Notes under the pieces: generated by a model
The model's database searches: none
What the model was told of the DNA's origin: nothing
The model's input: the letters and a program-made list of their open reading frames with translations, nothing else
Assembly: GCA_963991835.1 (NCBI GenBank)
Contig: CAXDRT010000002.1
Coordinates: forward strand, 1 to 42,311
Origin: an uncultured euryarchaeote
GTDB lineage: Archaea; Thermoplasmatota; Poseidoniia; Poseidoniales; Poseidoniaceae
Reading direction: 5' to 3'
Length of the DNA stretch: 42,311 bases
Part shown: positions 4,801 through 42,311 of the stretch, one piece after another
How the letters are laid out: the number at the start of each line of letters is the position of its first letter
Numbering within the stretch: the stretch's first letter is position 1
Position numbers and translations under genes: made by a program

Positions 4801-4937
4801 CTGACTCACTTCCCGACCAACACCCCGACAGACTTGAACATTATCCATACAAACTCTGGAATTTTCCTTGATTTGGTTTGGGAAAAACATACTGCGTCGG
4901 ATAAAGACATATGTACTACAGTGTGGCAAATAGAAAT

Positions 4938-12541: not shown

Positions 12542-12632
12542 TTCGGTGACTTCATTACACACAAGAAACCAATTCTTGGACCTAAGATTGTAGGCAATGC
12601 ACATAAGTGCAAGGATATCGAGGATTAACCTC

Positions 12633-16008: not shown

Positions 16009-16020
16009 TGTATGAATTCC

Positions 16021-17960: not shown

Positions 17961-17961
17961 A

Positions 17962-19251: not shown

Positions 19252-19260
19252 GGTAAAACC

Positions 19261-20235
19261 TCATTCAATCCATTGCTGACCAATCGCATCTCGGGCATGG
19301 TAAGATACTATGATGTCAGCACCCGCTCTTTTGAAGGCATGTAATATCTCACGAACCATCTTTCCACATTGATCATTTTCTTGGTTTGCCTGCATAACCA
19401 TTGTGTACTCGCCACTAACATTGTAGACAGCGACTGGGCGATTGACTGCGTCTGCGACTTGACGAAGAACGTCAAGATAAGGCAAACCTGGCTTAACCAT
19501 GATGATGTCTGCGCCTTCAGATTCGTCTGACTTCGCCTCAAAGATAGCCTCCGAATAACCCGAACGGATATCCATTTGATGGCTTCTACGATCACCAAAT
19601 ATTGGGGCAGAAGATGCTGCGTCTCTGAATGGTCCATAAAATGATGAGGCATATTTGACAGCGTAGGAAAGTACTCCTGTGGAATGAAATCCTCGTGATT
19701 CAAAAGCGTCTCTGATAGCCGAAACTCGACCATCCATCATATCTGAAACCGAAACATAATCTACGCCTGCTTCTGCATTTGCTAGTGCAATCTCAACCAA
19801 GCGTTGCACACTCTGGTCATTGTTGATGTGATCATCCAAAATTAGACCGCAATGGCCGTGATCTGTTGCAGTACACAAACAAACGTCCGTGAACAAAACA
19901 ATCTGATCACCAAAACGTTCTCGTAATTTTCGAACAGCTTGTATACCGTGCATTTGAGCATCAGATGCAACAGTAGCCATTGCATCTTTATGATCTGATT
20001 CGATCACTGCAAACAGCATGTGAGCATTTAGGCCAATAGAGACGTCATTGGAAATCGTTTCGAGTAAAACATCGACTGATTGCCGATGTATACCTGGCAT
20101 ACCATCGATGGGCTGGTTAATATTTTCACCAGCTACAACAAAGTGAGGTTGAACAAGTGATTGGGAAATCGAGGCCCCAAAGATGAGGTCTCGCCGGGAT
20201 TGAGTCCAGCGGTTAATTCTCGGTCGTGTTTGCAT
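19261..20235 (-). CDS. hemB: Porphobilinogen synthase (delta-aminolevulinate dehydratase), Zn-type
   Basis: The cysteine-rich metal site DVCLCTATDHGHCG marks a Zn-dependent enzyme. Also present: SDMMDGR, YASSFYGPFRDA, MVKPG.PYLD and AYNVSGEY. Start taken at ATG 20235 (MQTRPRINR), which overlaps the hemC-hemD 3' end by 23 nt. The track ORF extends to 20304. Confidence 0.93.
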   Translation of the reverse strand: MQTRPRINRWTQSRRDLIFGASISQSLVQPHFVVAGENINQPIDGMPGIHRQSVDVLLETISNDVSIGLNAHMLFAVIESDHKDAMATVASDAQMHGIQAVRKLRERFGDQIVLFTDVCLCTATDHGHCGLILDDHINNDQSVQRLVEIALANAEAGVDYVSVSDMMDGRVSAIRDAFESRGFHSTGVLSYAVKYASSFYGPFRDAASSAPIFGDRRSHQMDIRSGYSEAIFEAKSDESEGADIIMVKPGLPYLDVLRQVADAVNRPVAVYNVSGEYTMVMQANQENDQCGKMVREILHAFKRAGADIIVSYHARDAIGQQWIE

Positions 20236-21928: not shown

Positions 21929-21939
21929 CTGGAATCCTC

Positions 21940-23463
21940 CTATGCTGTGGTTTTTGTGCTCAATCGATAAACGAGTTGTTGTACATCATGAGCAACTTTC
22001 TGCAATAGGGTTTGATTGAGTTCTCGTTTTGTTTGGAAAATCATATCTCCAATCTCATCGATTGAAAAACCACCTTTTTTGTTGCATATCCATGTAGCAA
22101 TCTCTCTTGAGAACGGTTGTATCTGGGCTTCTTCTGTTGACATTACTGAATCATTTGACAACCACTCCAATGAGAGTTCCTCAAGGAGTTTGTACATACG
22201 AGATCGAAACATTGCTTCGTTACGGTCTGTAAGAGCTGCCATGAACTTTGATTCAACATCTGAGATGGCAACTTCGCTTTTTTTAATCGTTGAAGTATAA
22301 TCCCATTCCTTTCCGTATTGACGGGATTCTCGAATCCAGTGCTGCATACCAAAGTAGTTCGATTCGTTTGCTAGTATCGAAGAATCAATCGAAGGTGGCC
22401 ATGAAAAATCCATCACAACTGCATCTTCATCAACCGGCAATGGTGTATTTTGATTGTAGACCGGTGTTTCTGCACGAATGGTTGAAATTACGAGTTTCGT
22501 TTTATTGGCAGATCTGTGCCATTCTTCGAATGAAATTAGACGAACTTTTTTAACGAGTTCTGGATATTTAGATTGACTCTTTCCTATTGACCGGGATACG
22601 ACTGTAACATCACTTTGCCCAAGTTCTAATAGTGCAGATATTGCTTTTAGCCCCATGTCTCCAAAACCAAGTACAACAGGAGAAACATCTGAGTTTTCTG
22701 AGAGGATTTTTTCCAAACTATTCGTTGCAAGATTCAGCATAGATTCAGTTGTATTTGTAAAACCAAATTCCTTCCTTATGGTACGATTAGCCGCAATGAT
22801 ATGATCAAAAAATGTTCCCTTGTGGACGCTGAGAAGATCGTTCTTTTTGTGCCAAGCGATAGCATCTCTGAATTGTGCCATTACTTGCAATTCTCCCAGC
22901 ATGAAGGAGTCTAAACCGCTGCATATTTTCACTAAATTACGCCAAACGGACATGCCTGAATATTTCTTGAAGGGCGCTTCCTCTAATTCGAATGCTTCCA
23001 ATATAGATTTTTCAAGGAGGTCGCATGTTGTGGAAAAACCAACGTAGAGGACTCGATTACACGTTGAGAATTCAAATATTTCTTCTCCTAAATTTGAGTT
23101 GATTCTTCTAATAAGGTCGAGCCGTTGATTCAGAGTAAGGCCTTCGGACGTTAAGGATTTTACAACTTCTACGTTTCCTGGGGCCAGTTTTATTGAGATC
23201 ATGGAAAGGCCATCGAGAACTGATTGATGCCCTGTTGACCCGGCAGCCATTGGATTCGTGTGGCTAAGCGAGGAGTTTGACAATATGATTTTGTTGCTTC
23301 CGCTAACCATTTCATCGCCCCCTGTTAGTGGCGGGGCAAAACAAGTATACGAACCCTTGTTCATTGAATTCAGTTCAAATATCTCGCAGTAGGCCGAATA
23401 TACAGATTTTATCTGCTTCAATGCAGATGAAGTGATTTCTAACCGAAGAGAATTTTTCCACAC
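21940..23463 (-). CDS. hemA: Glutamyl-tRNA reductase (N-terminal boundary uncertain)
   Basis: Has the active-site motif FSTCNRVLYVGF and the NADPH fold VVLGFGDMGLKAISALLELG. The longest ORF starts at GTG 23463. Alternative starts are ATG 23310 (preceded by AGGGGG) and ATG 23202 (MISIKLAPG). The last one puts the catalytic Cys at the usual position of ~48. Confidence 0.85.
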   Translation of the reverse strand: MWKNSLRLEITSSALKQIKSVYSAYCEIFELNSMNKGSYTCFAPPLTGGDEMVSGSNKIILSNSSLSHTNPMAAGSTGHQSVLDGLSMISIKLAPGNVEVVKSLTSEGLTLNQRLDLIRRINSNLGEEIFEFSTCNRVLYVGFSTTCDLLEKSILEAFELEEAPFKKYSGMSVWRNLVKICSGLDSFMLGELQVMAQFRDAIAWHKKNDLLSVHKGTFFDHIIAANRTIRKEFGFTNTTESMLNLATNSLEKILSENSDVSPVVLGFGDMGLKAISALLELGQSDVTVVSRSIGKSQSKYPELVKKVRLISFEEWHRSANKTKLVISTIRAETPVYNQNTPLPVDEDAVVMDFSWPPSIDSSILANESNYFGMQHWIRESRQYGKEWDYTSTIKKSEVAISDVESKFMAALTDRNEAMFRSRMYKLLEELSLEWLSNDSVMSTEEAQIQPFSREIATWICNKKGGFSIDEIGDMIFQTKRELNQTLLQKVAHDVQQLVYRLSTKTTA

Positions 23464-23833: not shown

Positions 23834-24727
23834 TCACTCTTCTTCCAATTTCTGCGTAACGCTTGACGGTAGAAGAATTGTCCACCATGGATGCTTTTTC
23901 CGAACCTTGTCGTCATTAAACAAAGAACGTGCAAATTTCGAGAGAATATCAAGAACTAACACGACGATGAAAATCACAATTACATAGGCAAAGACCTTGT
24001 CGTATTGCAAGAATTTGAGATAGAGATTGATGTAATATCCAATGCCTCCAGCACCGACAATTCCGATTACTGTTCCATGTCTGAAATTGTATTCAAACAT
24101 AAACACTGCCTGAGAGATCAGGTTGTTTGCTGACTCTGGTAAAATGACACCAAATGAACGTTCGAGCCAACCATGACCCATTGCTCTTGAGGCATCAAGT
24201 TGGGGTTGAGCAACCCCTTCAATGACTTCATATTGCAACTTTCCAAGATAGCCAACGGTATACAATGTCATTGCCATAATACCAGCCATAGGCCCTAATC
24301 CGACCATGATCACGAACAAAACTGCCCAGAGAATACTTGGTAGACTTCTCAAACCAGCGAGAAGAGCACGAGCGGGATAAGAGATCCAAGCAGGGCTAAG
24401 ATTCTCTGCTGCCAACAGCGCAATTGGATAAGAAATTATCATACCAAATACGGTCGCTATGAAAGCAATTTTTAGAGTTTCAAGAAGGCCTATCCAAGCA
24501 GTGGAACAGGTGAAATCAAGCCATCCTGTTTCCTCGCAAACAGGATACGCCTGTGGTTCTAAAACACTCCAATCGGGTGGCCATAAGGATTCTGTGAAAA
24601 AGGTCTGAACATTGCGAGGGCTATCGAATAGTTTTTGCCAATTTCCTTCAATAGCGGAATTTGTTACCCCGATTGCAAGAGAGAGTAGGATAATGAAAAT
24701 ACTAACCCATCTCCATTGATACCACAA
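23834..24727 (-). CDS. ABC transporter permease, PhnE family
   Basis: Carries the PhnE hallmark EYNFRHGTVIGIVGAGGIGYYI plus the EAA-like loop region and six predicted TM helices. It has a TTG start at 24727, and there is no in-frame ATG upstream. Confidence 0.85.
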   Translation of the reverse strand: MWYQWRWVSIFIILLSLAIGVTNSAIEGNWQKLFDSPRNVQTFFTESLWPPDWSVLEPQAYPVCEETGWLDFTCSTAWIGLLETLKIAFIATVFGMIISYPIALLAAENLSPAWISYPARALLAGLRSLPSILWAVLFVIMVGLGPMAGIMAMTLYTVGYLGKLQYEVIEGVAQPQLDASRAMGHGWLERSFGVILPESANNLISQAVFMFEYNFRHGTVIGIVGAGGIGYYINLYLKFLQYDKVFAYVIVIFIVVLVLDILSKFARSLFNDDKVRKKHPWWTILLPSSVTQKLEEE

Positions 24728-24795
24728 TGAAGCGATTTGAGTGGCTAGTTTTGATTGATCTTTTTCATCATACTCATCTGAAACAATCTCACCTC

Positions 24796-25473
24796 CTAGA
24801 ATTCATATATTTCGACTAATTCTCCGCTTTTAGCAGTGAATAGACGGTTTGCCATCCGCTTTGCTCTTTCAAAATCGTGTTCGACAAGTATCATGATTGC
24901 ATTATTTTCGGCGACGTAATCAAGCACTACCTTCATCACCATTTCAAGAGTCTCTTCATCAAGTTCAGCTAAGAATTCGTCTGCTAAAATAAGCCGAGGC
25001 TGTTGCGCCAGTGTTCTGGCGACTGCAACACGTCTCTGCTGTCCCCCTGATAATTTTCGAACTGGAGTTCTGAGTTTATGATAAATGCCAACGGAATCGA
25101 TTGCATCATCAGAGAATTTTCGACAAGATGGAGAGAAAGGCCACCATGGCGAGGTATGACCTGCTCGTGCCCCAAGCATGACATTGTGTAGAACACTTGC
25201 GTGTCTTATCAGACCCAAGCGCTGCGGAATGTATCCTACTTCCCCTCTTCGAGGTTTACTCTTTCCGAAAATATTGAACTCTCCTTCGAGTGGTTCAAGC
25301 AAACCTGCTAAGGTCTTCAGCAGAGTTGTTTTACCAATTCCGGAAGCTCCGTTTATTGCAATAATCTCACCTGGATTAAACGTAAAGTTAACCCTTGAAA
25401 GGAGAGGTTCACTGACCTTGTAGCCAACAGAACCAGATTGAACAACTACGTTATTCGTTGATGTCACGTTCAA
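24796..25473 (-). CDS. ABC transporter ATP-binding protein, PhnC-like
   Basis: Walker A is GASGIGKTT, the signature is LSGGQQRRVAVAR, Walker B is LILADEFLAELD and the H-loop is LVEHD. It has a TTG start at 25473 and no in-frame ATG nearby. Confidence 0.85.
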   Translation of the reverse strand: MNVTSTNNVVVQSGSVGYKVSEPLLSRVNFTFNPGEIIAINGASGIGKTTLLKTLAGLLEPLEGEFNIFGKSKPRRGEVGYIPQRLGLIRHASVLHNVMLGARAGHTSPWWPFSPSCRKFSDDAIDSVGIYHKLRTPVRKLSGGQQRRVAVARTLAQQPRLILADEFLAELDEETLEMVMKVVLDYVAENNAIMILVEHDFERAKRMANRLFTAKSGELVEIYEF

Positions 25474-25530
25474 TCACACCGTTGTCCATCAAACGAAATA
25501 CAATCGTTCAGTGGTTATCGGTCAACACAC

Positions 25531-27651
25531 TTAGATATCGTATTTTCCATCAAAGTATGCAGAGATACCTGGGACGTTTGAAATCGAATCAGAATAGCTT
25601 CCCATGTGCTCCTGTGTGTTTACGGCAATGAGCCCACCTGTGTTCAATATTTCAGGAAGAATTGAATCTCCACACATATTTTCAGGAATATCACGGTCGA
25701 CTTCATGAGTGATCTGGTTGTAACAGTATCCAGTACCTTCCTCAATCCAAGCCTCGCCATTCATGTCCATTAGAGCATTCAAGATTGCAGCTCGGGTGTA
25801 CATGTCCATCATCGCAGGATTGAACATGACAGGATGGCTTGGAGCCTTTCCAAAGAGTGGTAGTGCCACGTATCCAGACGAACCGTTTTCAGTTTCTAAA
25901 CACCAGTTTCTTTGCTTCTGAACACAGTTGAAATCGTAGGTTGTATCTGCAATGAATGCAATATCTCCACGACCTTCTGAGAGGCATCGAAGTGCTCCGT
26001 CGTAACTGTAATAGAAGTCTCCTGACTCAGGAATTGATGCATCTTCGTTAAAGAAATTGAAGATTGTTGAGCGAAGAGATGCCACGTCATCAGGGTCTCC
26101 AATAACGTCAGCGTAGCCATTTCCTATGAGGTAACCCATTGGGAGAAGCATCCCTGCCGATTTCAGCCAACCTGTGTGACAGGATGTCTTTCCTCGGAAC
26201 AGTTCAAACGGATCTGTTGAGTCATCATCATCAAGATAGGCTTCAGCAATGTCGCTTCCTGCTTTGACGTAGGCTTGTGCACCATACCAAGAACGGCCAT
26301 CGGGTTTCAAGTCTGCAGCTAGTGCAGAGAGACCGTATTCTTTCCAGCCAACCCACGCTGCTCCTCCGTCCATGAAACCGATGTCTGCATGACCAAATCG
26401 AAGAGCCTCAATAATCGCTCCTTCAGAGGCGACATCGTACAATTCCACATCAACACCGAGTTTCATAGAGAGGCGATCTGCCAGGATTTGCGGATTACCA
26501 TCGATGTTTTCGTACGTATCACGAACTTCATATGCAATTACAATCGGGTTTTTCGTCGGTTGTACAGAAGTGTTTATTCCATATTTACCGCCGTAGTACG
26601 CCTGGATTCCAGGGACGTTTCGAATTGCTGCAGAGTATGTCCCCAAGTGATCTTCTGTTGTTCCTACATCGACGATTCCACTTGGAGAGTTGATGATGTC
26701 GTCAAGAATATCTTCTCCAACTTCATCGTCTTCCATTGCGACAAGTACCTTTCGGACAATGTCAGCCTTCTCATCGCTCATTGTCGCAGGATTGTACATA
26801 ACTGGATGTCCTGGAGCACGTCCGAAGATTGGTAATTCCACGTATTCGGTTTCATCAAGGCACCAAGTGTTGCTGTCTGCACGGTCTACACAGTAGTAGT
26901 CGAGAGTTGTATCAGCAACAAATGCGATATCGCCTCGGTCCTCAGACAAACATCGAAGAGCTCCTTTGTAACTGTAGTAAGTGTCTCCTGTTTCAGGAAT
27001 TGATGCGTCTTCGTTAAAGTATTCGTAAATCGTATTTCGCATTGATTCAACAGTATTTGGATCGCCGATTACATTCGCATACCCATTCCCAATCAGATAG
27101 CCCATTGGGAGAAGCATACCTGCCGATTTTAACCATCCTGTGTGACACGATGTTTTTCCTTGGAAGAGGGCGAATGGGTCGGTGTAGATGTCATCATCAA
27201 GATGCGCATCTGCCATATCCGTACCTGCTCGAATGACGGCTCTTGCGCCGTACCAAGTCCTTCCATCGGGTTTGGTTTCTGATGCTAGGACGCCGAGGTC
27301 ATACTGTTGCCATCCAACCCATGCAGATCCCCCGTCCATGAATGCGATATCTGCATGGCCGAAACGAAGGGCTTCTATTGAAGCTCCTTCTGAGCCTACA
27401 GCGTACAATTCTACTGGTGCGTTGAGTTTCTCTGAGAGATAATCTGCAAGACGTTGAGGGTTATCATCGATGTTGGTATATGTCTCTCGTACTTCATAAG
27501 CGACAACCAATGAATCGATTTGACCTGATTCATCGACATCAGCCTTTTCATCATCTTCTCCCAGACATCCTGAAAAGGTTACTGAGAGCATAAATGCGGC
27601 CATAAAAACTGCTTTTAGATAGTTGCGTGATTTCGTGTTCATGTGTTCCAC
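25531..27651 (-). CDS. Two-lobed transferrin-like / PhnD-family substrate-binding lipoprotein (predicted Fe3+-plus-synergistic-anion binding protein)
   Basis: Signal peptide followed by the lipobox-like FSGC. Two homologous ~322-aa lobes each contain (A/G)FMDGG, WYGA(R/Q)A, SCHTGWLKSAG, YYSY.GALRCLSE.RGDIAF, AP(G/S)HPVM and Y.....(R/S)NVPG. These correspond to the transferrin Asp63, Tyr95, Thr120/Arg124, Tyr188 and His249 contexts. EALRFGHADI is PhnD-like. Confidence 0.85.
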   Translation of the reverse strand: MEHMNTKSRNYLKAVFMAAFMLSVTFSGCLGEDDEKADVDESGQIDSLVVAYEVRETYTNIDDNPQRLADYLSEKLNAPVELYAVGSEGASIEALRFGHADIAFMDGGSAWVGWQQYDLGVLASETKPDGRTWYGARAVIRAGTDMADAHLDDDIYTDPFALFQGKTSCHTGWLKSAGMLLPMGYLIGNGYANVIGDPNTVESMRNTIYEYFNEDASIPETGDTYYSYKGALRCLSEDRGDIAFVADTTLDYYCVDRADSNTWCLDETEYVELPIFGRAPGHPVMYNPATMSDEKADIVRKVLVAMEDDEVGEDILDDIINSPSGIVDVGTTEDHLGTYSAAIRNVPGIQAYYGGKYGINTSVQPTKNPIVIAYEVRDTYENIDGNPQILADRLSMKLGVDVELYDVASEGAIIEALRFGHADIGFMDGGAAWVGWKEYGLSALAADLKPDGRSWYGAQAYVKAGSDIAEAYLDDDDSTDPFELFRGKTSCHTGWLKSAGMLLPMGYLIGNGYADVIGDPDDVASLRSTIFNFFNEDASIPESGDFYYSYDGALRCLSEGRGDIAFIADTTYDFNCVQKQRNWCLETENGSSGYVALPLFGKAPSHPVMFNPAMMDMYTRAAILNALMDMNGEAWIEEGTGYCYNQITHEVDRDIPENMCGDSILPEILNTGGLIAVNTQEHMGSYSDSISNVPGISAYFDGKYDI
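25534..27516 (-). repeat. Intragenic tandem duplication (2 x ~966 bp) encoding the two lobes of the transferrin-like protein
   Basis: Residues ~46-367 and ~368-706 align almost without gaps and are roughly two-thirds identical by eye. The DNA is also similar at an offset of 966 nt: cccattgggagaagcatccctgccgatttcagccaacctgtgtgacagg starts near 26135, and cccattgggagaagcatacctgccgattttaaccatcctgtgtgacacg starts near 27101. Confidence 0.85.
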
Positions 27652-31561: not shown

Positions 31562-32704
31562 GTGCGTACTGTCAAGTTCAATGTCCCTTACCTTAGTGGG
31601 AACGAAAGGGACTACATCAATGAAGTATTCGATAGTGGAGAGTTTTCTGGCAATGGAGTATTTACAAAGAAGGCACAATCAATGCTTGAAAATCACTTAT
31701 CCGCGCATCGAGTGTTACTAACACATAGTTGCACAGGAGCACTCGAAATGGCCGCTATGCTCGCTGGCTTTGGTCCAGGTGATGAAGTACTCGTTCCATC
31801 GTTTACATTTGTAACAAGTGCATCTTCCATCATGAGGACAGGAGCAACAGTCGTTTTTTGTGAAATAAATCCAGATACAATGCTGATCGATTTAGATGAT
31901 CTAAAGACGAAGATTACCCCGAAGACAAAGGGTATCGTCGCTGTTGATTATGCAGGATATGGCAACGATTATGAACAAATAAATCAGATTTGTGAGCAGT
32001 ATAATCTCACATGCATCGAAGATGCTGCTCAAGGACTGGGCTCATACTGGAAAAACAGGGCATTAGGAACACATACTCGTTTTGGAGCAATCTCTTTTCA
32101 CCAAACAAAAAATATTCATTCAGGTTTAGGGGGTTGCCTGATAATCAACAATCAAGAAGACGTAAACAAGGCAGAAATGGTTTGGGAAAGAGGGACTGAT
32201 CGAAGTGCCTTTTTCAAAGGCTTAGTGGACAAATACAGTTGGCAAGAAGTGGGATCTTCCTTCTATCCAAGTGAACTGCAGGCTGCTTTTTTGTGCGCTC
32301 AATTAGAAAGCATCAACGAAAATCTATCCGCCAGAAGAGATTTGTGGAATTATTATGAGGAACTACTGAGTCACCTAGAAAAGAATGATTCATTCAAGAT
32401 ATTACGACCTCCAATCGAAAGTGAACACAACGCCCATATGATGGCTATCCAGTTTCCGACTTCAAAAATAGCCGATTCTGCACGTATGTATCTTAATGAA
32501 AATGGTGTACAAGCGGTGATTCATTATGTTCCATTACATTCATCCCCAGTGGGAGAGAAATTAGGTTATTCCGAGAGAGATTTACCAGTAACTGCACAAG
32601 CTGCTGCTTGTTTAATCAGATTACCACTCCACCTCTCGATGGAGAAGAGTGACATTGATTATGTGGTTAAGATTCTTCAAGAATATGTTTCCGACGCTGA
32701 TTGA
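31562..32704 (+). CDS. wecE: dTDP-4-amino-4,6-dideoxyhexose (WecE-like, DegT/DnrJ/EryC1 family) PLP-dependent aminotransferase
   Basis: Collinear with E. coli WecE through FNVPYLSGNERDYINEV, VLLTHSCTGALEMAAML, GDEVLVPSFTFV, EDAAQG, the PLP-lysine context FHQTKN, GTDRSAFFKGLVDKYSWQEVGSSF and NAHMM. Confidence 0.9.
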   Translation: MRTVKFNVPYLSGNERDYINEVFDSGEFSGNGVFTKKAQSMLENHLSAHRVLLTHSCTGALEMAAMLAGFGPGDEVLVPSFTFVTSASSIMRTGATVVFCEINPDTMLIDLDDLKTKITPKTKGIVAVDYAGYGNDYEQINQICEQYNLTCIEDAAQGLGSYWKNRALGTHTRFGAISFHQTKNIHSGLGGCLIINNQEDVNKAEMVWERGTDRSAFFKGLVDKYSWQEVGSSFYPSELQAAFLCAQLESINENLSARRDLWNYYEELLSHLEKNDSFKILRPPIESEHNAHMMAIQFPTSKIADSARMYLNENGVQAVIHYVPLHSSPVGEKLGYSERDLPVTAQAAACLIRLPLHLSMEKSDIDYVVKILQEYVSDAD

Positions 32705-33374
32705 TGTGTTCAAAGACGTAACAAACTACGTAGAAAACCATCACTCCTAAGATTGGAGAACTGATGAATTTGATCCAATTTTCCAATAATGGATCGCTGA
32801 CCGTAGAATCCGTGGTAAAAAATCCACCTGATAATGTCCAACTTACCGCTCGAACTCCCAGGAACATTCCAAAGAGAACAGATACTATTTCTAAATCATT
32901 ATCCATCTTAACGTTCTCAATAATTACGGCTAATACGGCGAATATCAATACACTACTAAGACCAAATCCTGTAAAAATAGACAGGAAGAGTTCATGGCTA
33001 AGTGTGAAAACAATCATCACGTTTGAATACAGAGACAAACTGATCATTTGTTCTATTTCATTCACCTGCGTGAGAATCAATGCGATGTTGAGAAGAAACA
33101 GGCCATTACTCACAACTTCTTGCTCAGAAACAACCACAACTCCTGCAAAGAGAACGCCTCCAATAACCCATAGAATGGATTCATAGGCAACGTTTTGGTT
33201 CAATTGCTTATTTTTTAGCCAGATGATGGCCATCATTGCTACAGGAAGCGTATATTCTTTATCAGGAAGAAAGAGAAGAAGAAACGTTGCAAACGGTAGA
33301 ATATACTGTGTAAAAATGCTCAATTTATTTCCAATTGCATCAGGGGCTAGAGCGGAGAAGCCCCCTTGTGACAT
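32667..33374 (-). CDS. Polytopic membrane protein of unknown function
   Basis: About 7 hydrophobic segments and no recognisable family. ATG 33374 (MSQGGFSAL) is preferred over the TTG at 33392 used by the track. Its 3' end overlaps the convergent wecE-like gene by 38 nt. Confidence 0.5.
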   Translation of the reverse strand: MSQGGFSALAPDAIGNKLSIFTQYILPFATFLLLFLPDKEYTLPVAMMAIIWLKNKQLNQNVAYESILWVIGGVLFAGVVVVSEQEVVSNGLFLLNIALILTQVNEIEQMISLSLYSNVMIVFTLSHELFLSIFTGFGLSSVLIFAVLAVIIENVKMDNDLEIVSVLFGMFLGVRAVSWTLSGGFFTTDSTVSDPLLENWIKFISSPILGVMVFYVVCYVFEHINQRRKHILEES

Positions 33375-33442
33375 AGTGTTTGGTAGAGACAATCATAATT
33401 AAATTTAGGTAATCCTAAAAATGACTTCTGTTTGGGCTAAGT

Positions 33443-35265: not shown

Positions 35266-36096
35266 TTACTTCAGTATTGAACGAGCCTGTTTGACGAGCT
35301 TTACGAGTTCAACTCTCGCCTCATCTGAATTTTTAACATCATTACTGAATGCAAGACGTATCGGTTTCTTTCCAGATTCGGTGGTTGCCATCATTTCGAA
35401 CCCATACCTATCGATTGCAGTCATAACCGCTTCAGAAGTATCGATTGCTTTACTCATTGCCTTACAATAAAGAACAAGAGCATCTGCATGATCTTCATTC
35501 ATGTGGGTGATGATATCTTCAGAGAATTCATCGACAGGATCAGCTTCAGCATCACCCCATCTGGAACCACTCACCCATGACATTCGTCCAAATCCACCGA
35601 TGTAGCGTACGGAATCAACAGAGAGACGGAAAAAAGCAAAATCCTCCCAATCTGCGTATACGGATGCACTCTCGTGAGCCTCAAGGAAAGCATGTTTTGC
35701 AGCGTCTCTATCTTCACCAGTAATTTCTCGACATTCACCAACAAGAGTCACTCGACCAAGCGCCAGCGGGTTTCCTTCCCCAGTCTCTGCAATAAGCAAA
35801 GATGTCTTTGAATTCTGATTCAAATTTTTGGTATGTTCGGCAAGTTGGCTCAACAAAAATATTGGGTCACCCTCGTGCATAGCATACGTGACATAGGAAC
35901 CATATGGATATCCTTCGGATTTTGTTGAGATTGTGCATAATGTCGCAATATTCATTCTCGAAGCAAGAGTTCGAGCATATTCTGCATGCGATGGTTTTGC
36001 TACGTTTTTGTCATACAGGAGTTCTGGTTTGGAAGACCCATCTGCGTCTGGGGATGCATGTTTTGTAAATTTTTTATGCTCATTATCATTGCTCAT
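35266..36096 (-). CDS. Pyridoxamine-5'-phosphate-oxidase-like split-barrel + DUF2470 protein (HugZ/HutZ heme-degrading enzyme / GluTR-binding-protein family)
   Basis: ARTLASRMNIATLCTIS...GYPYGSYVTYA...PIFLLSQLAEHTKNL...GRVTLVG...FFRLSVDSVRYIGGFGRMSWV has the split-barrel pattern. The C-terminal IITHMNEDHADALVLYCKA is the DUF2470 signature. ATG 36096 overlaps the ATPase gene's 3' end by 11 nt. Confidence 0.75.
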   Translation of the reverse strand: MSNDNEHKKFTKHASPDADGSSKPELLYDKNVAKPSHAEYARTLASRMNIATLCTISTKSEGYPYGSYVTYAMHEGDPIFLLSQLAEHTKNLNQNSKTSLLIAETGEGNPLALGRVTLVGECREITGEDRDAAKHAFLEAHESASVYADWEDFAFFRLSVDSVRYIGGFGRMSWVSGSRWGDAEADPVDEFSEDIITHMNEDHADALVLYCKAMSKAIDTSEAVMTAIDRYGFEMMATTESGKKPIRLAFSNDVKNSDEARVELVKLVKQARSILK

Positions 36097-36961
36097 ATGT
36101 CTCACCTTTTGTATTGCTCATGTCCTCTACAGGAACACTCTCATGTTTCGCTGCTATTGTGTTTTGTGGTTCTTTAAGTTCATCTTTCACGAAGACTCGA
36201 AGGGGTTCGGAGACAGAGGTTGGTAACGAAATTTCAGAAGTTACATCAAAAACTTTCGCTATATTTTCAGATGTCAATACCTCGATAGGAGTTCCATCAG
36301 CGACTATTTCCCCATCCGATAGAAGAATAATTCGATCCGAAAACCTTGCTGCAATATTGATGTCATGTATGGCAATGAGAGCTGATTTTGGCGATTCTGT
36401 ATCTGAGACAAGCGACTTCAATTTCTTCATCACTTGAATTTGATTCTTCAAATCTAAATCACTCGTAGGTTCGTCGAGTAAGAATAATTGGGGTTCTTGG
36501 GCAATCGCCTTGGCGATGATAATTCTCTGACGCTCTCCACCCGATAATTGGTTGAATTTCCTAAATGCAAAATCTTCTAAATTCAAAAATCGAAGTGTAT
36601 CACTTACTACTTTTCGGTCATTTTCTCCTATTCTCCAGTTGATGTATGGCCTACGTCCAAGCAAGACAACATCAAAAACATCCATCGAAAAACTTGAACG
36701 AACTGATTGAGGTACATAGGAGATTAATTTAGATATTTCAACTAAATCTAATTCATTTAAATCCATTGATTTAAGTTTGATTTCAGCCGTTTGAGGCGTG
36801 ATAATTCTATTTAGACATTTGAGTAACGTCGACTTTCCTGCCCCGTTTATTCCAAGTATGGACACAAGTTCATTTTCAGGGATTGATAATTCGATCTCTT
36901 TCAAAACGTGATTATCTCCGTAACTAAACGAGAGATTTTGAACTTCTAGTAAATTACCCAT
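36086..36961 (-). CDS. ABC transporter ATP-binding protein, iron-chelate/heme/cobalamin (FepC/HmuV/BtuD) type
   Basis: LEVQNLSFSYGDNHVLKEI, Walker A GINGAGKST, signature LSGGERQRIIIAKA, Walker B LFLLDEPTSDLD and H-loop IAIHD. Confidence 0.88.
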   Translation of the reverse strand: MGNLLEVQNLSFSYGDNHVLKEIELSIPENELVSILGINGAGKSTLLKCLNRIITPQTAEIKLKSMDLNELDLVEISKLISYVPQSVRSSFSMDVFDVVLLGRRPYINWRIGENDRKVVSDTLRFLNLEDFAFRKFNQLSGGERQRIIIAKAIAQEPQLFLLDEPTSDLDLKNQIQVMKKLKSLVSDTESPKSALIAIHDINIAARFSDRIILLSDGEIVADGTPIEVLTSENIAKVFDVTSEISLPTSVSEPLRVFVKDELKEPQNTIAAKHESVPVEDMSNTKGETYEQ

Positions 36962-36965
36962 CGTA

Positions 36966-38000
36966 TCAATCCTTACCTCTTAGCAAAAGGTACATGAAAA
37001 ATGGACCTCCTATCACTGAAAGCATTACGCCAACTGGAATGACAATTGGAGCGAATAAAGTTCGACCAAGTGTGTCTGCCAATATCATCAAAAACGCCCC
37101 AAAGACCGCTGAGCATGGTATTAATTTCCTGAAATCATTTCCAACAATTATCCGAGCCATATGAGGTGCTGCTAGACCAACAAATCCAATCAAACCAGTA
37201 AATGCAATGACTATGGACGTCATCAATGCGGTTAAAATGAGAATATTCCTACGTATTTGCCTAGGATTAACTCCTGTCGATATAGCAAAATCATCGCCTC
37301 CTAACGATAAGGCATTTAGATCCCAAGACCATTTCAGAGCTGTCGGGAGTAATCCAATGACTGCAACACTAATCCAGAGAACATTCACAAGATTAGGACG
37401 GGAAAGACTACCAAATGACCAGTGGGCAAGTTGTGATAATTGTTCATCTGTTGCGAAATATTGCAATATAGATACAATCGCTCCAGAGATAAAGGTAATC
37501 GCAATTCCAATCAAAATATATGATTCCGGTGAAATTGATTTCATATCGCCTAATTTAATGATGATAAATACAACAATCAATGAGAAAAAGAAAGCATTTG
37601 CAACAATTGCTAATTCAGGTATGTTGACAACTGAAAATCCCACCACAATTGCAAGTGATGAGCCAAGAACTGCGCCTGATGAAACACCTAGCGTCAAAGG
37701 AGATACCAATGGATTGCCCAAACAACCCTGCATCAGAGCACCTGCAGTTGCCAAGGCAATACCTCCTATTATCGCCATTAATATTCTAGGAAATCTAAGT
37801 TCCCAGAGGATATTAGATTGAAGTTTATCTGGTTCATCAATTCCAAAAATGATCTTCGCTGTTTTCCACATATCTAAACTGGAAGAAGAACCTTGCCCGA
37901 TTGCAACGATTGAAAGGAAAATTGTCAAAACACAAAGAGCAACAATCGATACAATTTGTTTTTTTGCATCTTGGATGTGTTTCATCGACAATGAATCCAT
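36966..38000 (-). CDS. FecCD-family ABC permease (HmuU/BtuC-like)
   Basis: LRFPRILMAIIGGIALATAGALMQG..GNPLVSP..LGVSSGA and GLIGFVGLAAPHMARIIVG are FecCD signatures. ATG 38000 lies 4 nt after the binding-protein stop. The track ORF extends to 38075, inside the upstream gene. Confidence 0.9.
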   Translation of the reverse strand: MDSLSMKHIQDAKKQIVSIVALCVLTIFLSIVAIGQGSSSSLDMWKTAKIIFGIDEPDKLQSNILWELRFPRILMAIIGGIALATAGALMQGCLGNPLVSPLTLGVSSGAVLGSSLAIVVGFSVVNIPELAIVANAFFFSLIVVFIIIKLGDMKSISPESYILIGIAITFISGAIVSILQYFATDEQLSQLAHWSFGSLSRPNLVNVLWISVAVIGLLPTALKWSWDLNALSLGGDDFAISTGVNPRQIRRNILILTALMTSIVIAFTGLIGFVGLAAPHMARIIVGNDFRKLIPCSAVFGAFLMILADTLGRTLFAPIVIPVGVMLSVIGGPFFMYLLLRGKD

Positions 38001-38004
38001 GGCC

Positions 38005-39108
38005 CTAACCACCAAAGGAAGTGCAAACGAATGTACCGACTCTTTCGATGTCATGATGCTCCAAGTAATAATCATCTAGATATTTCTCAGCGTCAACATC
38101 CATGAAGAGAGTCGGATGGAAATATTTCGCTAAGGTGGGTAGCCCATGAATCATCATTGGGCCTGCGAATTCACCTGCCATAATGAGCATACGGTCATCG
38201 ACAATGGATTTCATTCCATCAAATCCTGCTCGCCCAGCAATAAAATCCATGTGTGTTTCACATTTGTTGTCATCGTCGAAATCATTGTATCCTATGTCAA
38301 ATGTTATTCCATCGAACATGAGAATATCTGGGTTAGCATCGATGATAGCCTCCATGTCTACATGAGTGGTATGGCCTGGCAAGTCTGCAAATACATTAAC
38401 TCCTCCAGCTCTATCGATGAGATCGGTCCATTGTGACGTTCCAGTCAAAACAACTGGATCTCTGGTTAGAGAAGCATGGTGTTCCATCACAATATCTGGC
38501 CTATCTGAATCATTTAATCCAGAAATTCGTTCTTCAACCATAGTTTCGATTTCATCAAATTCCTCGAATAGAGACTCTGCCTTTTGCTCTGCTCCAAAGA
38601 GTGTCGCAAAGGCAGAAATTTCTTCTCTTAGATAGTCATATTTATAGAAATCTAAGGCGATAACTTTGATGCCTACTGGTTCTAATTTCTCTCTGATTAC
38701 ACCGGTGTCAACCATTCCATTAGTTGCAAAGACAATATACGCATCAGGTCGGCAATCAAGGAGAGCCTCAAAATCAATTTCGGAATGAGCAGACAACTGA
38801 ACAAGCGGTACATCGGTTAGTTCAGGCCAAATAGATGCATCATCAAAGTCACCAGAGACACCGACAATTACATCGAGATCGACATCAAGCATTCGCAAGA
38901 CTGTACCTGCGTACGTATTGGTGATAACAATTCGTTCTGGGTGGTCCTCAAAACGGTGTTCAATACCGTTTGAGTCTGTAAGAACAATCGTTCCATTTTG
39001 TTCTGATTCATCATCTTGAATGGAGTATTGCCACACACCGATTGAGCAAACTAGCACCAATGCTATTTGGAATAAGGCCACGCTTCGGCCGCTAGACATC
39101 ATCATCAT
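38005..39108 (-). CDS. Class-8 periplasmic-binding-protein-like substrate-binding protein (HmuT/BtuF/FhuD type)
   Basis: N-terminal hydrophobic anchor (SVALFQIALVLVCSIGV), then PERIVITNTYAGTVLRMLDVDLDVIVGVSG and PDILMFDG, both typical of PF01497-type binders. Four consecutive ATGs (39099-39108) follow a GGAGG motif. Confidence 0.8.
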   Translation of the reverse strand: MMMMSSGRSVALFQIALVLVCSIGVWQYSIQDDESEQNGTIVLTDSNGIEHRFEDHPERIVITNTYAGTVLRMLDVDLDVIVGVSGDFDDASIWPELTDVPLVQLSAHSEIDFEALLDCRPDAYIVFATNGMVDTGVIREKLEPVGIKVIALDFYKYDYLREEISAFATLFGAEQKAESLFEEFDEIETMVEERISGLNDSDRPDIVMEHHASLTRDPVVLTGTSQWTDLIDRAGGVNVFADLPGHTTHVDMEAIIDANPDILMFDGITFDIGYNDFDDDNKCETHMDFIAGRAGFDGMKSIVDDRMLIMAGEFAGPMMIHGLPTLAKYFHPTLFMDVDAEKYLDDYYLEHHDIERVGTFVCTSFGG

Positions 39109-41446
39109 TCCTCCACAGAGTGAACATAATGGTTGAAGTCAATATGACAAGTACTATCGAACCAAGTGAAAGGAATGGAAGAAATCCTTCATCCTCTTTC
39201 TCAATCTCATCGATAGTCACGAATTCAGAGGATGAATATTCTGAAATCTTTCCACTCACCATGACATTCACTCGAAGACGGTTTTGTCCAGTCAACATGT
39301 CTTCTAGAGTTGTGAAGTTGTCACTTCCGTTGTACATCTCAATCACACCTCCCTCAGCGTCCTGAACAATGACAGAGTACCATTCAGCGTCGGGAATAGA
39401 CGACCATGAAAGATTCAATGACTCACCATTTTCAATTGTATTTGGAATAGAATCAATGACAGGAGTGGTTGGAATGAAATCAACATTGATTTGAATTTCA
39501 TCTCCTTCAATCAGATACCCAATATCAGTTAATGTATTCAAAGAATATACATAATTCCCGTCAGCATTCCTTTCCACATCGAATGATGTTGAATCGCCTT
39601 CATAGATCACTGCCCCATTCTGAATTAATTGGTAAAGTGTTGCACTTGGGAAACTTGCCCAACTGATTGTGTAATCTTTGCTTGTAATGGTTGATGATTC
39701 GGTAATGAATTTTGGTTTCGTAGGAATATCATAGCCACTTAATTCATACATTACGCTATCAGAGTGAGAACCTGGTAGCCGATCGACGATTTTCACATAA
39801 TTACGAACTGTTGAGTTGTACCACAGTTCCCAAGAAACAACTCCGTCGTCACTATCGGTAATTGTGATATAGGTCGTAAGGAATGTTTCGCCCAATACTG
39901 TAATTTCTACGTTTTCTTGAATAGAAACAGTGTTTTGTGTGTCATCGTATCCATTTGGATGTCCTGGAACTCCAATGATATTTGTTCGATTGAAATGAAG
40001 CGATTCAGGAAGGAGTTCTGAGAAAAATGCAGCTTCTTCACCTGAATTCGTAAAATCCCAACCCATTGTACCTTCTTGGAAATAAGATGAGCTTTCTGGG
40101 GCATCAACCCAATACGTCTTCACTGGCAGTAGATTGGATGCATCGAACCATCGAAAGGCCTTTTCACCTTCTTGGTACGTATCGTCAGTAATTCGGACAA
40201 GGAATGTTTCTTGATCTCGATCAAATGCATCAGAGATTGTTTCAGTCCCAATCATCGTGTATGTTCTATTATGGAAATATTCTGGAGTGTGGCTGATTGA
40301 ATAGTCCCAGCTCATGCCTGCTTGCCAAACCTGGTCATTTGTTGGATTCGGTAAAACAATCATCAAAAGTACAGGTGAGTTTTCATTCGTACCGTTGATG
40401 TTGTGCGATACGATCTTGAATTCATGTGTCCCAGATTCGAGTGGAGTGTACTCAAACGATTCATACGGACCCCTGTAGAGAAGGTTTTCTTCAGAAATTT
40501 CCCCTCGATATAAGGAGTAATAATCTGTATAGTCGCCTCCAGCCCATTCAAGATTGAATGGAGACATGATGACCGTTTCCATTTGAGACAAGAACGTGAC
40601 ATTGTGAGGGAACTCTACATCAACTATTGAAGTTAAATTAAGCCAATTCTGACCATTAGAAACAACATGTTGAACTGGAGGCATTAACTCAATACCATCT
40701 TGGTGGAGGGTAAGGGTTTCATTCCCACCAATCGAGAGATTTCTTAGTGAGAAGAAACCATCTGAATTTGTGAGAGTTGAGAGTTCTCCATTACTGACTT
40801 CAACGCCTGCAACAGGAAGGTCAAGGCTGTCCAATATGTATCCATAGATATTGTTCATGCCATGATAGAAATCGAAATGATTTGCTTTAGGATTCGAAGA
40901 CGAACCCTCTTGTAACTTGAAATGAAGAGACTGAGATGTTTGATCCGAACCATCATAGTTTGTATGGAGCGTGAAATACTCTCCTATTTTTAGGGGTCCA
41001 AACTCGACATTCCCGTCACTTACGGTCTTGCCTTCACCAGTTTCTTCAAGATAAATCACACTTGAGTTTGCAATTTCGTGGTCGATGCCATCATGCAGAG
41101 TACCTGTAATCCAGTTCTTCCCTTGATAAAAATCAAGTTCAAGATCACCATCGATATTGATGGTGCGATAGACGACTGTATGTCCATTATTCATGAAATA
41201 TGCTCGAATAACGTGCTCTCCTGGCGTAATTCCATTGAGCTCATATTCGCCATCAACAGACCAAACAGAATCAAGCGAATCTACTTTCATAGATGTGCTA
41301 TCAGCTATTTCCCCGTTCGAATCGAACAATGAGCCATAGATTCTGTACGTTTCCTCTGAAGAGGAAGTGTCTTCTGCAAGTGTAGAGAGTGGTACCACCA
41401 AACTCATGGCTAACAGGAATACTACACCAAGTGTACTACAGCGCAT
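39092..41446 (-). CDS. Surface-anchored protein with carboxypeptidase-regulatory-like and fibronectin-III-like beta-sandwich domains and a C-terminal TM anchor
   Basis: ATG 41446 (MRCSTLGVVFLLAMSLVVPLSTLA, a signal peptide) is preceded by GAGGAGAGGAG. The GTG at 41473 used by the track would run into the intergenic hairpin. Beta-sandwich-like repeats include YRIYGSLFDSNGE..., IYGYILDSLDLPVAGVEV..., LEWAGGDYTDYYSLYRG, YTISWASFPSATLYQL and LNLSWSSIPDAEWYSV. The C-terminal TM helix is FLPFLSLGSIVLVILTSTIMFTLW. Confidence 0.75.
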   Translation of the reverse strand: MRCSTLGVVFLLAMSLVVPLSTLAEDTSSSEETYRIYGSLFDSNGEIADSTSMKVDSLDSVWSVDGEYELNGITPGEHVIRAYFMNNGHTVVYRTINIDGDLELDFYQGKNWITGTLHDGIDHEIANSSVIYLEETGEGKTVSDGNVEFGPLKIGEYFTLHTNYDGSDQTSQSLHFKLQEGSSSNPKANHFDFYHGMNNIYGYILDSLDLPVAGVEVSNGELSTLTNSDGFFSLRNLSIGGNETLTLHQDGIELMPPVQHVVSNGQNWLNLTSIVDVEFPHNVTFLSQMETVIMSPFNLEWAGGDYTDYYSLYRGEISEENLLYRGPYESFEYTPLESGTHEFKIVSHNINGTNENSPVLLMIVLPNPTNDQVWQAGMSWDYSISHTPEYFHNRTYTMIGTETISDAFDRDQETFLVRITDDTYQEGEKAFRWFDASNLLPVKTYWVDAPESSSYFQEGTMGWDFTNSGEEAAFFSELLPESLHFNRTNIIGVPGHPNGYDDTQNTVSIQENVEITVLGETFLTTYITITDSDDGVVSWELWYNSTVRNYVKIVDRLPGSHSDSVMYELSGYDIPTKPKFITESSTITSKDYTISWASFPSATLYQLIQNGAVIYEGDSTSFDVERNADGNYVYSLNTLTDIGYLIEGDEIQINVDFIPTTPVIDSIPNTIENGESLNLSWSSIPDAEWYSVIVQDAEGGVIEMYNGSDNFTTLEDMLTGQNRLRVNVMVSGKISEYSSSEFVTIDEIEKEDEGFLPFLSLGSIVLVILTSTIMFTLWRNDDDV

Positions 41447-41470
41447 GGATCTCCTCTCCTCGAAGAGCGA

Positions 41471-41507
41471 CACTGGAGGGGATAGGGCGATAGTACCTCC
41501 TCCAGTG
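41471..41507 (-). promoter_or_regulatory. Intercistronic stem-loop (9-bp stem CACTGGAGG / CCTCCAGTG, 19-nt loop)
   Basis: A perfect inverted repeat, 41471-41479 paired with 41499-41507. It lies in the 93-nt spacer between the stop of the cysteine-rich protein gene (41540) and ATG 41446 of the next gene. This is the only sizeable spacer in an otherwise overlapping operon. Confidence 0.45.
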
Positions 41508-41539
41508 CCGCAGCAAGTGGATTGTGATCAACAGTTTAT

Positions 41540-42311
41540 TCAACTGTAAGATCCAATATCTTCGGCAGTAATTCCGTAATGGTCCCAAGCAGGTTGAAGC
41601 CATGCTGAGACATCATAGGAAGTTCCAAGTTGAGATGCATCTGTTAAGTCCAGGATTCCGTTCATCGATGTAGCACCGTAGTCAGCGTAGTATCCTGGCA
41701 TGTTGCTTCCAGGGAATACGGAGGCGAATCCGTTACAGATTGTCTCGTTTGTTGCTGCTGCGTATACAATGTGTCCAGCTCCCATGTTGTAGCAGACCAT
41801 ATTTCCAGTACTAGGGGATTGTACCCAAGAGAAACCATCACAGTTGCTTGCTTCTCCAGCACCAATCCATGCCATACCGTGAGTTTGGTTGTTGTAACAG
41901 GCATCAGTGTAATCTGCAGTGTATGCTTCAATGGTCTTCCAGAAAGCGTATGCTTCAGCTTGGTACTTAGGTCCATCACTTGAAGAGTCCATCTTAGAGG
42001 TGTACTTTAGTACAGCTTGGGAGTATGCGATAATCACGTTCTTGACAACATCGTTTGTTGCGTTTGTGTAACCATCTTGGTTGGATGCTTGAAGATCTGC
42101 AAGTCCTGTAATCATTGCTTGTTGGATGTGGTAGGTTGTGTTTGCCATTCCAGCAACATGCTCGGTTCCAAAGTCAGCGCCTCTCTTGTTGAGAGTTGAG
42201 ACAGGTCCACAGCCAACGTTTTCATCAGGTCCGTGGAAGAAAGCCCAGCCTTCGTCCCAGTTGTGAGGTGCACCAGAGTCGTTGTCGACGTTTCCAGCAT
42301 CAGCCTTTGCA
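41540..42311 (-). CDS. Cysteine-rich, probably secreted protein (5' end outside the window); possible Fea1/ISIP2a- or DUF4856-like iron-associated family
   Basis: The track lists 41540..42148 from an internal Met. My translation shows the frame stays open to the window edge (AKADAGNVDNDSGAPHNWDEGWAFFHGPDENVGCGPVSTLNKRGADFGTEHVAG-MANTTY...). There are six Cys, no C-terminal anchor, and it is the first visible gene of the iron/heme operon. Confidence 0.55.
   Translation of the reverse strand, partial: AKADAGNVDNDSGAPHNWDEGWAFFHGPDENVGCGPVSTLNKRGADFGTEHVAGMANTTYHIQQAMITGLADLQASNQDGYTNATNDVVKNVIIAYSQAVLKYTSKMDSSSDGPKYQAEAYAFWKTIEAYTADYTDACYNNQTHGMAWIGAGEASNCDGFSWVQSPSTGNMVCYNMGAGHIVYAAATNETICNGFASVFPGSNMPGYYADYGATSMNGILDLTDASQLGTSYDVSAWLQPAWDHYGITAEDIGSYS

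Follow-up and report, generated by a model that had tools for sequence, protein, structure and literature searches.

A conserved FecCD-type importer cluster with FEA1-related and HOZ-type proteins in a Marine Group II archaeon: a candidate iron-regulated island for haem uptake

Marine Group II archaea (Poseidoniales) are uncultured and rank with the most abundant heterotrophs in ocean surface waters. Here we describe a six-gene transport cluster from one of them, located on contig C2 of GenBank assembly GCA_963991835.1 (2.0 Mb in 233 contigs, 86% complete). The whole of this contig, 42,311 nt, was analysed and is referred to below as the window. Listing the open reading frames (ORFs) placed six consecutive genes on the minus strand at 35266..>42310, with gene 1 open at the contig end. 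They encode, in order, an FEA1-related lipoprotein, an anchored surface protein, a substrate-binding protein (SBP), a FecCD permease, an ATP-binding cassette (ABC) ATPase and a HOZ-type protein. An earlier interpretation made from the letters alone, hereafter the sequence-only reading, had proposed these genes as a candidate haem-scavenging operon.

Six coupled genes and their products

The genes are closely packed. We adopted internal ATG starts for the permease (38000, because ortholog starts match), for the HOZ-type protein (36096) and, probably, for the surface protein (41446). With these starts we reproduced the junctions reported by the sequence-only reading, namely a 17-nt overlap between the surface-protein and binding-protein genes, two gaps of 4 nt and an 11-nt overlap, the sole spacer being the 66–93 nt that follow gene 1. 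Pfam assignments also agreed with its labels for the binding protein, the permease, the ATPase and the split barrel with DUF2470.

The head gene of the operon, gene 1, is present in the window as its 3' part (41540..>42310, running to 42311, minus strand; 256 codons). It had been described as coding for a cysteine-rich secreted protein and is no orphan, since it encodes an FEA1-related lipoprotein. The window fragment by itself matched Pfam Fea1 at 1.5e-8 and NCBIfam NF038033 at 1.7e-40 (139 bits, for the fragment only), and a full-length ortholog from genome G027 (L016:6505-7953) scored 340.5 bits against the 250-bit cut-off of NF038033 and 1.8e-28 against Pfam Fea1. The 5' end of the gene and its promoter region are found at the end of another contig in this assembly, C81; this fragment carries a lipobox, AFAGC, and a Ser/Asp-rich linker within which the assembly breaks. 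The product also has a Cys-rich C-terminal extension. A sequence search of solved structures with FEA1 returned a low-complexity match only. The suggestion that both surface proteins form a new kind of capture module is therefore lost for gene 1, as a member of the FEA1 family.

Gene 2 (39092..41473, minus strand) encodes a surface protein of 793 aa from a GTG start or of 784 aa from the ATG at 41446. The shorter form is the likelier one because a database twin (P0001) and an Atlas record have that same length. Pfam yielded CarboxypepD_reg alone (aa 209–262), sequence search found no solved relative, and Foldseek with the whole protein returned generic Ig/FN3 chains and nothing further. An AlphaFold2 model (predicted local distance difference test, pLDDT, 79.5) is all-beta and ends in a transmembrane helix at 770–791. 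The layout comprises an N-terminal signal/anchor, beta-sandwiches of Ig-like, CarboxypepD_reg and FN3-like type, a central barrel, the transmembrane helix and a short acidic tail. We found 324 relatives of about 780 aa; among the source names shown, most were Euryarchaeota/Methanobacteriota archaeon or Thalassarchaeaceae and one was a Verrucomicrobiales bacterium, suggesting that the family occurs almost exclusively in Marine Group II. The close relatives of gene 1 likewise mostly carried the names Euryarchaeota/Methanobacteriota archaeon and Candidatus Thalassarchaeaceae.

The most conserved part of the surface protein is the barrel domain (aa ~378–590; 39704..40342, minus strand), modelled as a 12-stranded open beta-barrel. 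Searched alone, it returned 34 representatives among 1.84 billion proteins. A separate AlphaFold2 model of aa 370–600 reached pLDDT 86.9 and a predicted template-modelling score of 0.83. Its best fold matches were YmcC (2in5, Z 9.4, root-mean-square deviation 4.4 over 164 aligned residues) and a Parabacteroides lipoprotein (4fvs, Z 9.3), followed by autotransporter barrels (Z 8.0–8.8) and by LolA/VioE and related open barrels (Z 6–8). Foldseek with the barrel domain gave nothing at E<=1e-3 (best E 1.9e-3), and Atlas scores of 0.77–0.81 are leads only. The model suggests, with uncertainty, an open barrel of YmcC/LolA-like fold, and we regard this domain as a candidate ligand-binding module. Pfam (E<=0.01) found no NEAT, HasA or HmuY family, in agreement with the sequence-only reading on NEAT and HasA for both surface proteins; nor were these families listed in the fold searches, where a missing match does not exclude a family.

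Genes 3 to 5 encode a FecCD permease, an ABC ATPase and a Peripla_BP_2 protein side by side, all above Pfam cut-offs, the composition of a type II importer. The SBP (gene 3; 38005..39108, minus strand; Peripla_BP_2 80.4 bits) belongs to cluster A-II and has an N-terminal membrane anchor. The permease (gene 4; 36966..38000, minus strand, with the longest ORF extending to 38075) matched FecCD at 6e-84 (282.2 bits), and the ATPase (gene 5; 36086..36961, minus strand) matched ABC_tran at 7.6e-30 (104.7 bits). Against the NCBIfam corrinoid, haem and FecE models, the ATPase scored 211–227 bits each, in every case below the cut-off. In two relatives, G005 (L018:2912-4177) and G015 (L021:4102-5370), the ATPase is 421–422 aa long and carries an insertion of ~140 aa after residue ~65 that matches no Pfam family.

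Gene 6 (35266..36096, minus strand; alternative GTG start at 36105) encodes a CREG/PNPOx split barrel (aa 39–183) followed by a DUF2470 (DRI) domain (aa 195–270), the order of the HOZ-like subfamily, an architecture defined by Grosjean et al. (2024, J Biol Chem; PMC11602992). Its best solved match was MSMEG_6519 (5bnc, E 4.8e-52, query 29–272 against chain 8–250), which PMC11602992 terms a haem-degradation protein. Next came AtHOZ1 (6m09, 3.2e-30) and PtHOZ1 (9bl1, 1.8e-27); PA4388 was also matched, as was cyanobacterial Dri1 on the DUF2470 part. A conserved His that contacts the haem propionates is found at AtHOZ1 His135, HugZ His136 and PtHOZ1B His90, and a His pair of the DRI domain at PtHOZ1B His201/His206. 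In an alignment with numbering checked on the chain, gene 6 His88 corresponds to PtHOZ1B His90, and His198/His203 to His201/His206. PtHOZ1B Gln163 and Lys263 are replaced by Arg164 and Arg261, and PtHOZ1B His61 and His119 are not kept (Ser60 and Val119). His88, Arg164, His198, His203 and Arg261 were invariant in 26 orthologs from across the order, apart from one X at His88. We thus predict that gene 6 encodes a cytoplasmic haem-binding or haem-degrading protein. The HugZ label given to it by the sequence-only reading holds insofar as it names a haem-binding/degrading split-barrel family, and fails on domain order, which is the reverse of that in HugZ. Assignment to HugZ in the strict sense was rejected accordingly (TIGR04109, 68.6 bits against 240), and so was the HutZ equivalog (TIGR04110, 44.4 bits against 225).

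Candidate control elements and order-wide gene neighbourhoods

Upstream of the cluster we found a palindrome, TTAGGNNNNCCTAA, which presumably resembles the DtxR/IdeR consensus. There are five exact copies in the 2.0-Mb genome. All five, together with nine of the 18 one-mismatch copies, lie in ORF-free DNA, which makes up 5.2% of the genome when ORFs of at least 100 aa are counted. Because five exact copies are only about twice a rough composition-based expectation, the case for this box rests on its position and conservation rather than on its count; with five exact copies in 2.0 Mb, a generic promoter or terminator element was rejected as a reading. Directly upstream of the FEA1 start on contig C81, two boxes with one mismatch each stand 19 bp apart. 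Exact tandem pairs occupy the same site in G027, G022 and G005. In G043, two exact boxes stand before FEA1, and the surface-protein gene is preceded by a one-mismatch box. Across the order, 11 loci include the DNA upstream of the head gene, and 10 of them have an exact box there, as judged from tblastn coordinates rather than from start codons checked one by one.

Other copies of the box also precede iron-related genes. An exact copy stands at 27684 before a transferrin-like gene, a one-mismatch copy precedes a ferredoxin, and a tandem box precedes an operon of a 544-aa secreted protein, flavodoxin and DUF4149 genes (G000 contig C16:16372-19366, L035); further copies precede small membrane proteins. 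A DtxR-family gene is present on contig C69. With the palindrome upstream of iron-related genes and a DtxR-family gene in the same genome, as in a DtxR/IdeR regulon, we take the box to be a candidate operator. One exact copy in the window (33405–33418) has a 241-aa multi-pass membrane ORF (32667..33392, minus strand) on one side and rmlA (33443, plus strand) on the other, and is kept at the same place in five relatives; the membrane ORF matched no family. The C16 operon consists of the 544-aa protein with TSP_3 repeats, the flavodoxin (PF00258, 2.3e-27), a 150-aa membrane protein and the DUF4149 protein, and small membrane proteins like those on C16 follow the box on contig C40.

The spacer between genes 1 and 2 encodes a predicted RNA hairpin (41467..41511, minus strand; minimum free energy -38.1 kcal/mol, z -2.66) followed by CTCTT(T). 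It is found in six genomes, in which nine of the 31 predicted pairs are retained through two-sided, compensatory changes, making it a candidate attenuator or transcript-stabilising element. Rfam returned no families in the window or in contig C81. Contigs from marine metatranscriptomes (four runs from two studies) covered parts of five of the six genes, those for FEA1, the surface protein, the permease, the ATPase and HOZ, and two of these contigs bridged the spacer between genes 1 and 2. No listed piece fell on the binding-protein gene, and the uncovered parts carry no meaning. Depths of 20–470 for the FEA1 pieces against 2–9 for the rest hint that FEA1 is the dominant transcript; these contigs can neither rank genes by depth nor demonstrate a single transcript.

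We next consider how the cluster is inherited among 61 related genomes, which are kin, so that the counts of markers are not independent. The surface protein was found in 11 of the 61 and HOZ also in 11; strong FecCD matches (>250 bits) occurred in the identical 11 genomes as HOZ, and real FEA1 matches in 10. The union of the four markers is 12 genomes, the two odd ones having short contigs or 57% completeness. None of the 61 has a second FecCD-type permease, the remaining matches scoring ~20 bits. The transferrin-like binding protein of a second importer was present in 49 of the 61. HOZ is thus distributed like the FecCD module, unlike the transferrin one.

Gene order is conserved as well. 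By tblastn of seven loci, the full order of FEA1, surface protein, binding protein, permease, ATPase and HOZ, beside rmlB/rmlA, recurs in G027, G022, G005 and G009, whereas G032 and G015 show part of it, cut by contig ends. In all seven of these closer loci, and in all 15 order-wide loci that include that DNA, the surface-protein gene comes immediately before the binding-protein gene, which makes 22 of the 22 loci having DNA upstream of the latter. These results bear out the earlier proposal of one iron-related transport cluster, which is conserved and co-inherited. In the window's genus, the six closer loci lack a flavodoxin, have FEA1 at the head and are followed by rmlB/rmlA, not PhnC/PhnE. 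A search for rmlB at 1e-40 found none in five genomes of the same genus that lack the cluster; since the flank is itself variable, an insertion boundary cannot be defined. In G009, surface-protein, FecCD and HOZ fragments occur on both contig C217 and contig C29, as two cluster copies or strain variants.

Order-wide, HOZ was found in 45 of 301 genomes (~15%), covering 15 of 26 genera and both large families, and we fetched 20 further loci to compare their neighbourhoods. HOZ follows the ATPase of the FecCD module on the same strand in 17 of the 20. Fourteen carry a flavodoxin gene, which in 13 of them stands immediately ahead of HOZ. Twelve of the loci reach upstream of the surface-protein gene; FEA1 is the head gene in 10 of these and is absent beside the cluster in L070 and L084. 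One locus, L085, has the order FEA1, transferrin-like SBP, surface protein, SBP, permease, ATPase, flavodoxin, HOZ, PhnC, PhnE. The picture is that of a composite iron island with shuffled modules. A divergent HOZ class, 31–37% identical to that of the window, occupies the same operon position in genus g13 (L086 in G229 and L087 in G111).

Weighing the cargo

The genes belong to recognisable families, keep their order, are inherited together and lie behind a palindrome that is rare and position-specific and that also precedes flavodoxin, ferredoxin and transferrin-type genes; control by iron, what the two surface proteins do, the nature of the cargo and the turnover of haem are inferred. That the locus is an iron-regulated uptake island we consider very probable. 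For the cargo itself, haem has about an even chance, and the same balance applies to the fuller statement that this is an accessory operon, controlled by iron starvation, for uptake of haem, a haem-like iron tetrapyrrole or haem-peptides. Haem is the best single candidate because the sole cytoplasmic function co-inherited with the importer belongs to a haem-binding/degrading family, often with a flavodoxin of its own. It is also favoured because Pfam detected no family for siderophore reduction, ester cleavage or biosynthesis among the genes of the cluster.

A third argument for haem comes from the binding protein. The proposed siderophore site of YiuA is a basic triad, Arg64/Arg165/Arg223 (PMC5683015). 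In HMMER alignments, these positions correspond to Tyr66, Tyr155 and His211 of the binding protein, so the three Arg or Lys residues that line site 1 in YiuA-type proteins are not found there, and this replacement favours haem. None of the three residues varies among 22 orthologs, and the same holds for Tyr157, His246, His249, Asp251, Glu253, His286 and Met318/319. Tyr, His and Met serve as axial ligands in known haem-binding proteins, and the Tyr/Tyr/His set of the binding protein is thus a lead to possible haem ligands.

On the favoured reading, haem uptake would proceed in six steps. Under iron scarcity, a DtxR-type repressor would leave the tandem operator before the head gene. The membrane-tethered FEA1 lipoprotein, perhaps the product of the most strongly represented transcript, would, judged by its family, concentrate iron at the surface, and the hairpin after FEA1 would probably reduce read-through into the five coupled genes. 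The 784-aa anchored protein might then present its open beta-barrel to capture the cargo, which the anchored binding protein would pass to the FecCD/ATPase type II importer, a family assignment that is firm for the importer and conditional for what it carries. Finally, HOZ would bind and degrade the imported haem, freeing iron, with electrons perhaps supplied by flavodoxin, which most relatives encode next to HOZ and which in this genome belongs to another part of the candidate box regulon. More tentatively, and with somewhat less than even confidence, we suggest that this would constitute the first archaeal haem-acquisition system, leading from a barrel receptor through a Tyr/His binding protein to a flavodoxin-driven HOZ.

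Several observations in this and the following paragraphs weigh against haem as the cargo. The genome makes its own haem, and uptake would therefore be unneeded for haem supply: Pfam finds hemA, hemCD, hemB, hemL, hemE, hemF, a hemY-like oxidase and hemH at 13727..23463, bearing out the earlier claim of complete haem synthesis in the window, with a weak hemY assignment. The HOZ family includes non-enzymatic haem sensors (PMC11602992). The barrel's Z of 9.4 is weak, as unrelated models typically reach 7–8, and we graded its fold uncertain because it barely exceeds this background. PhnC directly follows HOZ in 10 of the 20 order-wide loci, with PhnE next where the contig continues; HOZ may therefore act for the island in general, for instance in the recycling of endogenous haem. 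In two of the 20 (G193 and G101), transferrin-like SBP, flavodoxin, HOZ, PhnC and PhnE form a unit, and the FecCD module is convergent with it, 2–4 kb away. This order-wide shuffling of modules tempers the inference to haem. The sequence-only argument that tight coupling to a HugZ gene favours haem is therefore weaker than was claimed, given where HOZ stands in the order-wide loci, and haem is still the best single guess.

The best-surviving alternative is that the importer carries a ferric siderophore or another organic iron chelate, with HOZ and flavodoxin as general iron-starvation functions rather than the importer's downstream step. The chelate would possibly be an amphiphilic marine siderophore with a tail fitting the LolA/YmcC-like barrel, and HOZ would recycle endogenous haem or release iron reductively. 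The nearest solved relatives of the binding protein are siderophore-type, namely YiuA (6b2x), 4mo9 and the putative siderophore-type 9hrj/9ht5, with profile E values of 1e-22 to 1e-25 for YiuA and 9hrj-type proteins. No haem-binding SBP was reached at E<0.01 with the single binding-protein sequence, and solved IsdE was reached only with a profile, at E 5e-5, far behind the siderophore-type proteins. The binding protein scored 41.1 bits against the 298.65-bit cut-off of the IsdE model TIGR03659 and fell below the cut-off of every haem SBP model in NCBIfam, and the ATPase and permease score similarly on the NCBIfam corrinoid, haem, citrate and hydroxamate models. Hydrophobic-ligand carriers (LolA-type, lipovitellin) are among the barrel's fold matches at Z 6–8, HOZ and flavodoxin sit in the transferrin-type operon in the two loci just described, PhnC follows HOZ in half of the 20, and HOZ-like genes also occur beside siderophore-interacting proteins and FepB/FhuD-like fusions (PMC11602992). 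Set against this are the replacement of every basic-triad position by the invariant Tyr/Tyr/His, the lack of siderophore-processing families in the cluster and the tracking by HOZ of the FecCD module (11/61) rather than the transferrin module (49/61). On balance, we regard a siderophore or chelate cargo as unlikely, while giving it serious weight.

A non-haem Fe(III) route, in which FEA1 captures iron and passes it on, directly or via the surface protein, to a binding protein that coordinates the metal by Tyr, His, Asp and Glu, appears improbable. The FEA1 family is tied to non-haem ferric iron, so the identity of gene 1 points that way, and FEA1 is at the operon head in most order-wide loci (10/12). 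FEA1 directly precedes a transferrin-type binding protein in G043 and L085; in G043, where it lies away from the cluster, it is the first gene of the transferrin-type operon. The many invariant His, Asp and Glu residues of the binding protein would suit a directly bound metal ion equally well, the candidates being Tyr66, Tyr155, Tyr157, His211, His246, His249, Asp251 and Glu253. Conversely, FecCD type II importers with Peripla_BP_2 proteins are known for bulky chelates or oxyanions and are not known to handle bare Fe(III). Moreover, FEA1 is unlinked in G043 and missing beside the cluster in L070 and L084, 49 of the 61 genomes already have a separate transferrin-type Fe(III) importer, and no role would remain for HOZ. 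In G043 (contig C16, region L062:8771-9147), the FEA1 gene lies ~200 nt 3' of an apparent 16S rRNA 3' end, judged by eye, with a sequence ending GGATCACCTCCT.

A BtuFCD-like importer of cobalamin or another corrinoid, with HOZ as a tetrapyrrole-handling accessory, is very improbable: the top NCBIfam model of the ATPase is corrinoid (227 bits), BtuC is among the permease's best (196 bits) and this is the sole FecCD-type importer in these genomes, but the scores are far under the cut-offs and no better than those of iron models, the cluster is found in only 11 of 61 relatives and stands behind a box common to flavodoxin, ferredoxin and transferrin-type genes, and BtuF appears at E 0.018 only, with a profile.

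Known systems and other genes of the window

Bacterial haem importers with a linked degrading enzyme include HmuTUV/ChuTUV with ChuZ/HugZ and, in the Isd system, IsdE/IsdF with IsdG/I. The cluster resembles them in having a receptor, a binding protein, a FecCD permease, an ATPase, a cytoplasmic degrader and iron repression, each at the strength given above. It differs from them in that Pfam finds no TonB receptor, NEAT, HasA or HmuY family and in the domain order of gene 6, the reverse of that in HugZ. The binding protein shares the two-lobe family of YiuA and 9hrj-type proteins and departs from them at the basic triad (PMC5683015). Gene 1 matches both models of algal FEA1 and diatom ISIP2a phytotransferrin (PF07692; NF038033) and has a candidate iron box upstream, and on weak evidence it appears to be strongly represented in marine RNA libraries. 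What sets it apart from the algal and diatom proteins is its nature as a lipoprotein of an archaeon, its Ser/Asp-rich linker, its Cys-rich C-terminus and its place at the head of an ABC importer operon.

The closest precedent is the set of neighbourhoods described by Grosjean et al. (PMC11602992), in which HOZ-like genes of prokaryotes frequently have iron genes as neighbours, FecCD-family and transferrin-like ones among them, and which are read as possible clusters for haem uptake and utilisation. They resemble the present cluster in placing a protein with a split barrel and then a DRI domain beside FecCD and transferrin-like genes, and the core logic of HOZ beside FecCD genes is thus already in print for bacteria. 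The main text of that paper does not contain the word 'archaea' and does not mention FEA1-type lipoproteins or a large anchored surface protein, whereas the present cluster is archaeal, stands behind a DtxR-like box and is led by FEA1 and a surface protein. Our literature search on Poseidoniales and Marine Group II, which did not cover supplements, found no paper on haem or siderophore uptake in this group, nor one on such a system in archaea. We conclude that this type of system is known in bacteria and not yet described in archaea. Several points are new: the variant with FEA1 at its head, the switching of FEA1 between importers, the substitution of Tyr/Tyr/His for the basic triad, the hairpin kept among relatives, the lack of any other FecCD module in these genomes and the shuffling of modules across the order.

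An iron-switched route for haem or chelates would put Marine Group II into the marine haem and iron cycle, and would add a receptor family and an operator/regulator pair for reading iron stress in metatranscriptomes. If haem is indeed the cargo, these planktonic cells would scavenge haem in solution or on particles, or haem-peptides, by means of a previously undescribed receptor family, a multi-Ig stalk bearing a YmcC/LolA-like barrel. The island would then offer two routes for iron, with non-haem iron entering via FEA1 and the transferrin-like protein and haem via the barrel receptor.

The rest of the window holds several other genes of note. Eight kilobases from the cluster, a transferrin-type operon (23834..27651) encodes a 706-aa two-lobed Phosphonate-bd/Transferrin protein and PhnC/PhnE-type ABC genes. 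Among the haem-synthesis genes, a single ORF of 571 aa (20213–21928) encodes a fusion of porphobilinogen deaminase with uroporphyrinogen-III synthase. A bacterial GpsA-type NAD-dependent glycerol-3-phosphate dehydrogenase, a known feature of Marine Group II, is encoded at 12597–13631. A 1194-aa protein (4911–8495) gave weak beta-propeller/WD40-type matches below Pfam cut-offs and contains thrombospondin type 3 repeats, and these TSP_3 repeats are shared with the box-controlled 544-aa protein on C16.

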